From: an uncultured Clostridia bacterium
GTDB lineage: Bacteria > Bacillota > Clostridia > Oscillospirales > Ruminococcaceae
DNA: 64,000 nucleotides
Direction: 5' to 3'
Assembly: GCA_947627235.1 (NCBI GenBank)
Contig: CANQVG010000009.1
Span: 2,376-66,375, forward strand
Below the pieces are notes generated by a model that saw only the letters and a program-made list of their open reading frames with translations, ran no database searches and was not told the DNA's origin. The position numbers and the translations under genes were made by a program. Shown here piece after piece: positions 5,691 to 8,134 of this stretch (positions are counted from its first letter, which is position 1; each line of letters starts with the position of its first letter).

Positions 5691-6386
5691 ATGAAACACG
5701 GAAAGAAATATATTGACAGCTTAAAGACTGTTGACAAAACAAAATTCTATGATTCCGTCGAGGCTTGCGAGCTTGCCGCCGCAAACGCCAAGGCAAAGTT
5801 TGACGAGACCATCGAGGTTCACATCCGTCTGGGCGTCGACTCCCGTCACGCCGACCAGCAGGTTCGCGGCGCCGTAGTTCTTCCCAACGGCACCGGCAAG
5901 ACCGTCCGCACCCTTGTTTTCTGCAAGGAAGACAAATATGAGGCGGCAAAGGAAGCCGGAGCGGATTATGTCGGCGGTATGGAATATGTCGATAAGATTA
6001 TGAAGGAAAACTGGATGGACTTCGATGTGGTCATTGCCTCGCCCGATATGATGGGCATTGTCGGACGTCTCGGTAAGGTTCTCGGTCCTCGCGGACTTAT
6101 GCCTAACCCGAAGGCGGGTACGGTTGCTCCCGACGTGGCGAAAGCCGTCACCGAAGCTAAAGCCGGTAAGATTGAATACCGTCTCGATAAGACCAACATC
6201 ATTCACTGCCCGATAGGCAAGGCTTCCTTTGGCAAGGATAAGCTCGCCGAGAACTTTGAGACTCTCGTCGAGGCCGTTGTAAAGGCAAAGCCCGCCGCAG
6301 CGAAGGGTCAGTACCTCAGAAGCATCGTGATTTCGTCGACTATGGGCGTCGGCATCAAGTGCAACACCGCCAAGTACGGGGTCTGA
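5691..6386 (+). CDS. rplA: 50S ribosomal protein L1
   Basis: 231 aa containing [23 protein letters not shown]. Confidence 0.97.
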
Positions 6387-6406
6387 TACACAAAATATCA
6401 TAAATC

Positions 6407-6436
6407 AAAAGCAGGTACGTTGTGCCTGCTTTTTTG
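6407..6436 (+). terminator. Rho-independent terminator after rplA
   Basis: Hairpin agcagg...cctgct followed by a T6 run. Confidence 0.7.
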
Positions 6437-6508
6437 CTGTCGGTATTTTATCCCGCGCAGTACGATGGCAGCTTCGGGCTTCACCGAGGAGAAGCGAGAA
6501 CTTAAAAA

Positions 6509-6724
6509 TTGAGTGTCCTTCAAGAGCGTAAAACAAAAAGTTTTCGGTCGAGCCTTTTTCAAAAGGCTCGCAGGGTCGAGGGGCGCCGCCCCTCGGCGCA
6601 GCCCGCAGGCTGCGAAATCCTTGCGCAGCGAAGCGCAGGAGGGTAGGTAAAACAGTCCGGCGGACTGTTTTACCGTAGGGAACCCTCGCCGGGGGTTCCC
6701 TAAATTACACCGTGTGGACACTAT
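6509..6724. mobile_element. 216-bp MITE-like multi-hairpin insertion with 8-bp target-site duplication
   Basis: It is flanked by the direct repeat CTTAAAAA (6501-6508 and 6725-6732). Removing 6509-6732 restores the unit junction seen in the neighbouring repeat copies (gcgagcatttaaaagcagcgcagcc). The imperfect terminal inverted repeats are tgagtgtcc / ggacactat, with six internal perfect hairpins. There is no ORF. Confidence 0.7.
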
Positions 6725-6736
6725 CTTAAAAAAGCA

Positions 6737-6756
6737 GCGCAGCCGTAAGGCTGCGC
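6737..6756 (-). terminator. third copy of the rplL terminator hairpin
   Basis: gcgcagcc-gtaa-ggctgcgc, followed on the minus strand by tgctttttt. Confidence 0.6.
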
Positions 6757-6859
6757 CACAATCCAACGTTATTAAGAGAAAGCGAAGTAAAATTACTTGA
6801 TTTCCACAGTAGCACCGGCAGCTCGGGCTTCACCGAGGAGAAGCGAGCATTTAAAAGCA

Positions 6860-6879
6860 GCGCAGCCGTAAGGCTGCGC
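6860..6879 (-). terminator. second copy of the rplL terminator hairpin
   Basis: An identical 8-bp stem hairpin followed by tgctttt on the minus strand. Confidence 0.6.
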
Positions 6880-6983
6880 CACAATCCGACGTTATTAAGA
6901 GAAAGCGAAGTAAAATTACTTGATTTCTACAGTAGCGCCGGCAGCTCGTGCTTCGCCGAGGAGAAGCGAGCATTTAAAAAGTA

Positions 6984-7003
6984 GCGCAGCCGTAAGGCTG
7001 CGC
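6984..7003 (-). terminator. primary rplL terminator hairpin
   Basis: gcgcagccttacggctgcgc followed by tacttttt on the minus strand, 37 nt after the rplL stop. Confidence 0.75.
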
Positions 7004-7039
7004 CACATTTCAAAGTTGTTAAGCACAGGAAAGTAAAAA

Positions 7040-7408
7040 TTACTTGATCTCGACGGTAGCACCGGCAGCTTCGAGCTTCTCCTTGAGTTCATCAGCCTCA
7101 GCCTTGGAAGCGCCTTCCTTGACAGCCTTAGGAGCAGCTTCGACAAACTCCTTGGACTCCTTGAGTCCGAGACCGAGAATGTCCTTGACAGCCTTGATAA
7201 CGCCCATCTTGTTGTCGCCGAAGGAAGCGAGGATAACGTCGAACTCGGTCTTCTCAGCGGCAGCGGGAGCAGCACCGGCAGCGGGAGCAGCGGCTATAGC
7301 TGCGGTAACGCCAAATTCCTCCTGAATCGCGTCAACAAGCTCCTTGAGCTCGAGAACGGAAAGAGCCTTGATGTCTTCTACAAACTTTGTAATCTTTTCG
7401 GAAGCCAT
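7040..7408 (-). CDS. rplL: 50S ribosomal protein L7/L12
   Basis: 122 aa with an Ala-rich hinge ([16 protein letters not shown]) and the C-terminus [14 protein letters not shown]. Confidence 0.97.
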
Positions 7409-7493
7409 AATAGTAAATCTCCTTTTTGTAATATGTTTTGATGATTTTACGCCGCGTATACTTTATGCGGCTGCTTTTGAATCCGAGAAGCGC

Positions 7494-7994
7494 TTAGGCG
7501 GCTTCTTCGTTCTTGTCCGCGACGGCCTGAAGGGTAGCCGCGAGCTTCTGAATCGGACCCTGAAGGGAACCGACGAGCTGTGCGAGAAGAGTGTCCTTTG
7601 AAGGAATCTTCGAGAGAGCGACGACGCCTGCGGCATCGTAAAGCTCGGTGCCGATAAAGCCCGCCTTAAGCTCAAAATGGTCGTGTTCCTCGGCGTATTT
7701 GCCAAGGATACGGGCGGCGGCGGTTTCGTCGGACGAAACGGCAATGGCGGTAGCGCCAGAGAGGACGTCGGTCAGACCGTCGAGACCGGCGTTCTGCATA
7801 GCGAATCTGAGGAGAGTGTTCTTCTCGACCGTATACTTTACGCCCGCTTCGCGAAGCTCTTTGCGGAGCTTTGTGTCGTCCTCGACCGAGATTCCCGAAT
7901 AATTGACCAATACGCCGGAAGTGGCGTTCTTGAGCATTTCGGTTATCTCCGCGACCTTCTGCTTTTTCTCGTTGAGAATGTTCTGGTTTGGCAT
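7494..7994 (-). CDS. rplJ: 50S ribosomal protein L10
   Basis: The ORF track begins at 8003, but that codon lies inside the RBS GAGGTG. The ATG at 7994 (MPNQNILNEKKQKVAEI...) has 7-nt spacing from the RBS. Confidence 0.93.
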   Translation of the reverse strand: MPNQNILNEKKQKVAEITEMLKNATSGVLVNYSGISVEDDTKLRKELREAGVKYTVEKNTLLRFAMQNAGLDGLTDVLSGATAIAVSSDETAAARILGKYAEEHDHFELKAGFIGTELYDAAGVVALSKIPSKDTLLAQLVGSLQGPIQKLAATLQAVADKNEEAA

Positions 7995-8134
7995 TTGTTT
8001 CACCTCTTTAAGACGGAATTATGCCCCGAATCAAAAATCCCTTTTCACATAAAGAGAAAAGGGACGTGAAAGTCATATAAAACCCTTTCCTCGGTTGGAC
8101 TTACCTTTATGCCAACTGTCTTTAGACCGGTGCA
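7995..8134 (-). promoter_or_regulatory. probable L10 (rplJ) leader with intrinsic attenuator
   Basis: A ~140-nt 5' UTR lies between a consensus promoter and rplJ. It contains the hairpin tcccttttc...gaaaaggga followed by TTTTTG just upstream of the RBS. This matches the layout of the Firmicutes L10 leader. Confidence 0.5.

Follow-up and report, generated by a model that had tools for sequence, protein, structure and literature searches.

A probable MITE-like element with a conserved five-hairpin core, inserted at a duplicated rplL terminator in an uncultured Clostridia bacterium

Introduction

In the genome of an uncultured Clostridia bacterium, the ribosomal protein genes rplA and rplL face each other across a spacer that holds a short tandem array, and one unit of this array is interrupted by 216 bp of sequence built largely from hairpins. 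What is this interrupting sequence, how did it come to lie beside a transcription terminator, and what might account for its structure? A sequence-only reading of the window (the whole 64,000-nt stretch of contig CANQVG010000009.1 that was analysed, to which all coordinates without a contig name refer) had proposed a MITE-like mobile element. Here we follow this proposal through the assembly from which the window comes (1.65 Mb in 37 contigs, 97.6% complete), through the genus, and through wider samples of public genomes.

Results

An insertion with a target duplication and an empty site

The genes rplA (Ribosomal_L1, 5691-6386, + strand) and rplL (Ribosomal_L12, 7040-7408, - strand) converge on a spacer of 657 bp, most of which is filled by a tandem array whose unit consists of the last ~55 nt of rplL and the rplL terminator. 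Three terminator hairpins lie in the array region (6458-7080), at 6734-6757, 6857-6880 and 6981-7004. The outermost array unit reads ...gcgagaaCTTAAAAA[216 bp]CTTAAAAAagcagcgcagcc, while the two intact units read gcgagcaTTTAAAA(A)gcagcgcagcc, with the empty junction gcgagcaTTTAAAAgcagcgcagcc / gcgagcatttaaaaagtagcgcagcc. Because the intact units have neither the 216 bp nor the second 8-mer, both are extra: 6509-6724 was inserted and 8 bp of target were duplicated, the site hit being the T-tract that follows the outermost of the duplicated rplL terminators. The features of the insertion are as follows.

6501-6508, no strand: target-site duplication, left copy, CTTAAAAA (direct reading; the paralogous intact units have a single TTTAAAA(A))
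6509-6724, + strand: inserted element, 216 bp, non-autonomous, non-coding (direct reading; BLAST 100% self-match)
6512-6518, + strand: left terminal inverted repeat AGTGTCC (reverse complement of 6716-6722, 7 bp, perfect)
6716-6722, + strand: right terminal inverted repeat GGACACT
6725-6732, no strand: target-site duplication, right copy, CTTAAAAA (minus-strand T-tract of the terminator hairpin 6759-6734)
6729-7079, - strand: 123-bp tandem array, 2.8 units, 89% matches (TRF and terminator scan)

The insertion, its 8-bp duplication and the empty-site comparator inside the window had all been claimed in the sequence-only reading, and each can be read directly from the letters; the second CTTAAAAA is no part of the ancestral repeat unit. 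The termini had been described as imperfect inverted repeats. An inverted repeat is indeed present, and it measures 7 bp and is perfect. We considered whether the 123-bp array could itself be a long target duplication, or footprint, of the element, and rejected this: only 8 bp adjoin both ends, and the next repeat of the element's left flank lies ~115 nt further right.

The element had also been said to contain no ORF. A frame of 122 aa on the minus strand (6398-6766) does cross the whole element; it has no Pfam match, and core lengths among the copies cover all three classes modulo 3, so we judge it not to be coding. No promoter was found at the window copy. The element has a folding energy of -119 kcal/mol on the + strand and -112.5 kcal/mol on the - strand (z = -9.2 against shuffles for both).

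Gene order around the spacer

Here and in the related genome G016, rplJ-rplL is inverted relative to rplK-rplA (window 5691-8003), which makes rplA and rplL converge. The canonical co-directional order rplA-rplJ-rplL was seen in all other same-contig cases examined in the genus, and in G005 rplL lies 10 kb away. The inversion breakpoint coincides with the element-bearing spacer. The rplA-rplL spacer of G016 (contig C66) has no tandem array and holds a reversed element copy with a ~200-bp interruption, and this copy adjoins the same rplL terminator T-tract (cttacaaaaaacagcgc); it may reflect an inversion or a separate insertion event at that terminator. Among the genomes examined, the 123-bp rplL array is specific to this genome.

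A multi-copy family with a patchy distribution

A covariance-model search of the 1.65-Mb genome returned 11 matches, comprising seven full copies, three cut by contig ends and one degenerate copy. In BLAST comparisons, the six other full copies are 93-95% identical to the window copy over its positions ~21-196. Of the 41 congeneric species, 18 carry the family, and copy numbers in the dozens are frequent; the species count is inferred from extra matches per genome, 12 genomes having been scored directly as carrying the element (11 of 24 other species, and this genome). The sequence-only reading had held that a single copy genome-wide would speak against mobility, and these counts show the opposite. 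Outside the genus, the family was found in two of ~165 sampled genomes, one of 16 from other families of the order and one of 149 in a class-wide sample of other genomes. An exact-pattern scan of public genomes gave at least 119 loci; the matches listed were all from gut or rumen MAGs (goat, rabbit, human), labelled Acutalibacteraceae, Oscillospiraceae, Clostridia and similar.

Four contig ends of this assembly lie inside element copies (C33:1, C13:1, C17:1 and C9:67053), and many contigs of related MAGs likewise terminate in them. The element thus breaks short-read assemblies, and all copy numbers given here are lower bounds. The practical effect is that repeats of this element fragment MAG assemblies.

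Insertion footprints at other copies

Other copies in this genome have direct repeats of their own, at constant offsets 27-31 nt outside the core anchors and 6-16 bp long: AATGAGCA at C13 (8 bp), AAAAATT at C11 (7 bp), CTTTTT at C3 (6 bp) and TTTTTGTTTTCTGTTT at C6 (16 bp). The copy at C20 has none. Across 78 copies drawn from many genomes, an exact 8-mer is common to the left and right flanks in 32, compared with 9.2 +/- 2.7 in mismatched-flank controls. Copies favour the 3´ ends of genes (26 between convergent genes, 23 and 13 in the two co-directional arrangements, 6 between divergent genes), and they occur in both orientations relative to their neighbours.

The sole pristine empty site is the paralogous one inside the window. 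The C3 site in G052 is without the element. The C13 and C6 sites in the sister species G005 and G016, with gaps of 46-68 nt, were considered as clean empty sites and rejected, as the gaps hold collapsed remnants (GGGGAATTCCCGAAAT...; GGTCAAGC..GTTTTGCC..GTTCCCT). Given the decay at these sister sites, the majority of copies may be old. The copy that G016 carries at C20 belongs to another core sublineage and differs in its borders, an arrangement that speaks for repeated hits on a hot spot. A search of this genome for solitary ends without a core yielded only one stray right-end-like sequence; this solitary GTGTCCACACAGTGCGCATTT (C16:4723-4754 of this genome, G000) has no core and may be a decayed remnant.

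Sister subfamilies with other ends

The same core is common to subfamilies that differ in their ends and in their insertion footprints. Subfamilies T2/T3 come from LOHA11, SUG1305 and goat MAGs; their ends are GGTTCATCACGG...CCGTGAGGAGCG or GGTTCTTCACGGAAAGTTGGGG, their terminal repeats measure 12-25 nt, and they show the perfect 8-bp duplications ACAAAAAT, AAAATTTT, AATAAATC, CCTTTTTT and GAAAAAAA. Perfect 8-bp duplications flank five of ~10 complete sister-subfamily copies, and two more are near-perfect. Subfamily T1, seen in the rabbit MAG Lapin-022 among others, has the ends CAGTCTGTCGATAAAC...TTTTTCTACACGCTG. All the T1 copies examined lie between duplicates of an entire terminator hairpin (19-33 bp), and one T1 copy is nested within a hairpin of another. 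Together with the multiple copies in this genome and their own direct repeats, the 8-bp duplications of the sister subfamilies bear out the earlier proposal of a MITE-like mobile element.

A second GC-rich hairpin repeat type, CCCCTCCC...GGGAGGGG, adjoins element copies in several genomes (loci L060 and L229, the latter in G005:C13, and the CANQYD loci L122 and L178). These repeats look like a second repeat family.

A five-hairpin core with near-pure Watson-Crick pairing

The interior of the element was aligned in 124 copies with a covariance model of 175 positions and 51 pairs. The features found in the window copy are as follows.

6530-6544, + strand: weak 5-bp hairpin
6532-6705, + strand: conserved five-hairpin core (match to covariance model R1, 204.8 bits)
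6549-6570, + strand: helix 1, 10-bp stem (97.7% of cells paired; 9 of 10 pairs change on both sides)
6577-6595, + strand: helix 2, 8-bp stem (97.0% paired; 8 of 8 pairs covary)
6598-6613, + strand: helix 3, 6-bp stem with conserved CGCA loop (98.7% paired; 5 of 6 covary)
6622-6637, + strand: helix 4, 5 bp, lineage-specific (69.5% paired; not conserved in the family)
6632-6643, + strand: unpaired motif AGCGCAGGAGGG (the AGCGCAGGA part is invariant in 47 diverse copies)
6646-6674, + strand: helix 5, 13-bp stem (98.7% paired; 12 of 13 covary)
6677-6701, + strand: helix 6, 9-bp stem with TCGCCGG loop (98.5% paired; 9 of 9 covary)

Six perfect hairpins with stems of 6-13 bp had been described in the sequence-only reading; all six are perfect, with stems that measure 5-13 bp. 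Across copies, the core is 165-174 nt long and its five helices are at least 97% paired. Standard pairs occupy 95.4% of cells (79.3% in shuffles and 36-52% with slid partners), and double-sided changes occur at 47 of the 51 pairs, in 804 cells compared with 198 in shuffles. The AGCGCAGGA motif lay outside the pattern used to search for copies.

The composition of the pairs bears on the level at which the structure acts. The five conserved helices contain 4669 Watson-Crick pairs, 38 G:T, 25 A:C and 62 others, such that wobble accounts for 0.8% of cells and neither strand is favoured (G:T 38 vs A:C 25). Near-pure Watson-Crick pairing with no strand bias points to DNA-level palindromes or to a fold that forms in either orientation, and argues against a functional RNA of one strand; on these sequence comparisons, a DNA-level or either-orientation structure fits the core better than a one-strand RNA. 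Minimum-energy folds had seemed to prefer the + strand (76 of 91 copies; G:U 408 vs 134). This signal comes from pairings outside the conserved helices, and given the balance of G:T and A:C within them we make no strand call. A long-range helix predicted by RNAalifold on a MAFFT alignment proved spurious, hairpin 1 having been misaligned, and was superseded by the covariance-model alignment. Rfam gave no match to the element in the window region among hits up to E = 10, and none at the gathering score for 17 loci covering all subfamilies.

Ends and core differ in conservation

Within this genome, the cores are 95-98% identical, and a sharp boundary separates them from ends of 24-31 nt that are only 63-65% identical (shuffled baseline 46-48%). 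This reverses the textbook pattern of MITEs, as conservation is lowest at the ends. When copies from any one of the other genomes are compared, they share 73-91% identity, and sublineages are common to several species. Either the cores in this genome were homogenised or selected after old insertions, or transposition itself scrambles the ends.

Promoters beyond the right ends

A sigma-70-type site (at least 10 of 12 consensus positions) lies beyond five of the eight right ends in this genome (C13:34302, C6:52885, C20:21905, C11:1070 and C33:1), always in the same orientation and reading away from the element, compared with a background of 1.9% of random 110-nt windows. The -35 box begins 36-42 nt past the core end, or 7-9 nt past the duplication. 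The promoters at C13, C6 and C20 are also present in sister species and therefore belong to the host. In other genomes, copies are associated with terminators instead.

The search for a partner transposase

The sequence-only reading had suggested looking for a partner transposase with the same terminal repeats. None was found: Pfam searches for six families (ISL3, IS256, rve, Y1, IS1595 and IS6) gave no match in this genome. Among the 41 genomes, the IS256 type (PF00872) is present in 12, all of them among the 18 carriers of the element. ISL3 occurs in two genomes, both non-carriers, IS1595 in two, and IS6 in one, as a weak match; Y1_Tnp (PF01797) occurs in nine, of which seven are carriers, leaving 11 of the 18 carriers without one; and rve occurs in 20, with no pattern with respect to carriage. 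IS256-family elements typically make 8-9-bp duplications. The co-occurrence of IS256 with the element is a lead rather than an identification, and it is confounded by shared ancestry.

No longer or autonomous element with the same ends was found in the loci examined, in this genome or in G006, and a search of the loci examined and of this genome for terminal-repeat pairs 0.4-4 kb apart gave nothing convincing. A copy in G006 with its left and right halves 3.8 kb apart was considered as a composite or autonomous form and rejected: each half has its partner only ~40 nt away, and what distinguishes G006 is no more than an additional internal hairpin. G011 contains an intact IS256-like copy of 1512 bp with the 8-bp duplication GATTTTAT and the tips GAGTCTGA.../GGTTCCGA..., which recall those of the window's own type (GAGTGTCC) and of T2/T3 (GGTTC), with a match at the tips only. 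The element copies of G011, however, have ends that differ from those of this IS256-like copy.

A separate insertion sequence of 1.06 kb (L244-L251, in G005, G054, G024 and G006) has TGT...ACA ends and encodes a 360-aa transposase with HTH, rve and rve_3 domains (IS3/IS481-like). Its target duplications are unusually long (24-26 bp), and six of its eight copies are followed immediately by the -35 box of a consensus promoter directed away from the insertion sequence. Its end TGTAAGTTTGTCAATGATC matches the T1 end CAGTCTGTCGATAAAC at 11 of 16 positions.

Discussion

We conclude, with a probability of about 0.8, that the insert at 6509-6724 represents a MITE-like transposable element of the non-autonomous type. 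The sequence shows that the 216 bp entered the A/T tract CTTAAAAA beside the outermost duplicated rplL terminator hairpin and that 8 bp of target were duplicated, the footprint left by a staggered cut and gap repair. A DDE-type transposase supplied in trans probably made the insertion. An IS256-family enzyme is the candidate, being the only 8-bp-duplicating type common in carrier genomes; no such enzyme is assembled in this genome, and the copies here are therefore probably stranded. The element consists of two weakly conserved ends of 24-31 nt around a strongly conserved five-hairpin core of 165-174 nt, which may work as a DNA structure or as a fold that forms whichever strand is transcribed. 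At gene ends the core might, for example, block transcription in both directions or act as an insulator. A core of this kind would make insertions between terminators and promoters tolerable, which would explain its retention while the ends decay.

The nearest class of known elements is the bacterial MITEs, such as Correia/NEMIS of Neisseria and MITEAba12 of Acinetobacter (PMC6382973; reviewed in PMC3184786). Like them, the element is small (216 bp, where such elements stay below about 500 bp), non-coding and intergenic, has terminal inverted repeats, a fixed-length target duplication and a stable fold, and occurs in multiple dispersed copies with patchy presence. Unlike them, it has no matching parent IS that we could find, its 7-bp terminal repeats are far less conserved than its interior, and that interior is a covarying five-hairpin module common to subfamilies with unrelated ends. 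Several observations count against our reading: the ends, which a transposase would recognise, are the least conserved part, the C20 copy has no duplication, no parent element was found, the six transposase families searched have no match in this genome, and the C13 and C6 sites of sister species hold decayed remnants.

In a different account, which we regard as possible but doubtful, the core is a module maintained by the host (a transcription insulator or a nucleoid-protein site, for example), the copies in this genome are old and kept alike by gene conversion or selection instead of recent transposition, and only the ends record ancient insertions. The sharp boundary between cores at 95-98% and ends at ~64% identity would fit such a module, as would the finding that sister species have either a remnant or a copy in the corresponding intergenic spaces (C13, C6 and C20), the lack of a detected transposase in this genome and the fixed distance at which five of eight right ends lie upstream of strong promoters. 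However, the 8-bp duplication of the window copy is perfect and its paralogous empty site is clean, the different sublineage and borders at the C20 site in G016 favour repeated insertion, and other genomes show no homogenisation, with within-genome identities of 73-91%. Host maintenance accounts for the persistence of the copies, not for their origin.

We consider it improbable that the sequence is a structured non-coding RNA gene or a cis-regulatory RNA that was duplicated by chance and is not mobile. The very stable fold (z = -9.2), the strong covariation and the conserved unpaired AGCGCAGGA are what such an RNA would show, yet target duplications and terminal repeats are present, and copies can point either way with respect to the genes beside them. 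Moreover, G:U at 0.8% of cells with no strand bias is unusual for a functional RNA, no subfamily has an Rfam match, and the window copy has no detected promoter. Least probable of all is a palindrome of the REP/BIME or REPIN type moved by a Y1 enzyme (RAYT or IS200-type) on single-stranded hairpins, for although the GC-rich, intergenic cluster of perfect palindromes, the Watson-Crick-only pairing that suits DNA hairpins and the Y1_Tnp genes of seven carrier genomes are compatible with it, Y1 transposition leaves no target duplication, this genome has no Y1_Tnp match and 11 of 18 carriers have none either.

Returning to the MITE-like element, in its behaviour we find it closest to bcr1 and the related Group A repeats found in the Bacillus cereus group, as these are summarised in PMC3184786 (from Okstad 2004, Klevan 2007 and Kristoffersen 2011). 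According to that summary, bcr1 shares a length of ~155-220 bp, a Firmicutes host, short direct repeats, an uneven distribution among relatives, compensatory structure changes and the lack of an identified transposase. It differs in its 5-bp repeats and in being reported as transcribed, with structure at the RNA level, whereas the present element has an 8-bp duplication and Watson-Crick-only pairing without strand bias; the two have no sequence similarity.

Terminators are known targets of other elements. The T1 subfamily duplicates whole terminator hairpins (19-33 bp), a behaviour reported for IS1630 of Mycoplasma fermentans (IS30 family), to judge from the title of Calcutt et al. 1999 as cited in PMC7648426 and PMC3317919; the account in PMC3317919 gives duplicated junctions of 16-26 bp. 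In contrast to IS1630, the 8-bp duplication of the window copy lies beside the hairpin and not across it. IS1272/TnSha1 (IS1182 family) targets terminator hairpins without sequence specificity and re-hits them in both orientations (PMC4923244), and the element copies at the rplL terminator of this genome and at that of G016 likewise point in opposite directions. IS1272, however, causes a partial loss of the hairpin, not a duplication, and both IS1630 and IS1272 encode a transposase, which the element does not. The GC-rich clusters of perfect palindromes at gene ends also recall the REP/BIME/REPIN sequences of Proteobacteria (PMC3337134; PMC3184786), whose plausible roles in termination, mRNA protection and protein binding offer a model for what the core might do. 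REPs owe their mobilisation to RAYT tyrosine transposases and have no target duplication; the element has duplications, in a genome without a Y1 match.

The presence of one core within several kinds of ends invites a broader and more tentative idea, to which we would not give even odds: the core may be a portable functional module that is carried by at least three MITE frameworks with different transposition systems and is selected as a strand-symmetric insulator. The frameworks are the following.

Framework 1: GGTTC...CACGG ends, 8-bp duplications
Framework 2: AGTGTCC ends, 8-bp duplications
Framework 3: CAGTCTGTCGATAAAC ends, whole-hairpin duplications of 19-33 bp

In such a scheme, a strand-symmetric DNA or RNA structure would insulate neighbouring transcription units, and insertions between terminators and promoters would be harmless or even useful. 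If this is true, small transposons of gut Clostridia spread a ready-made regulatory or structural cassette.

Taken alone, the element is one more MITE family in uncultured gut bacteria and of an ordinary kind, with the merit of a clean insertion whose empty site lies in the same window, and terminator T-tracts are again seen to serve as landing pads. More can be gained from following up the conserved five-hairpin core, which is almost free of mismatches, occurs with several end types and insertion footprints and, in this genome, usually lies at a constant distance upstream of strong promoters. If the core is functional, whether in insulation, termination or protein binding, it would offer a natural system in which to study how transposon cargo can tame its own insertions, and a source of compact two-way structural modules.
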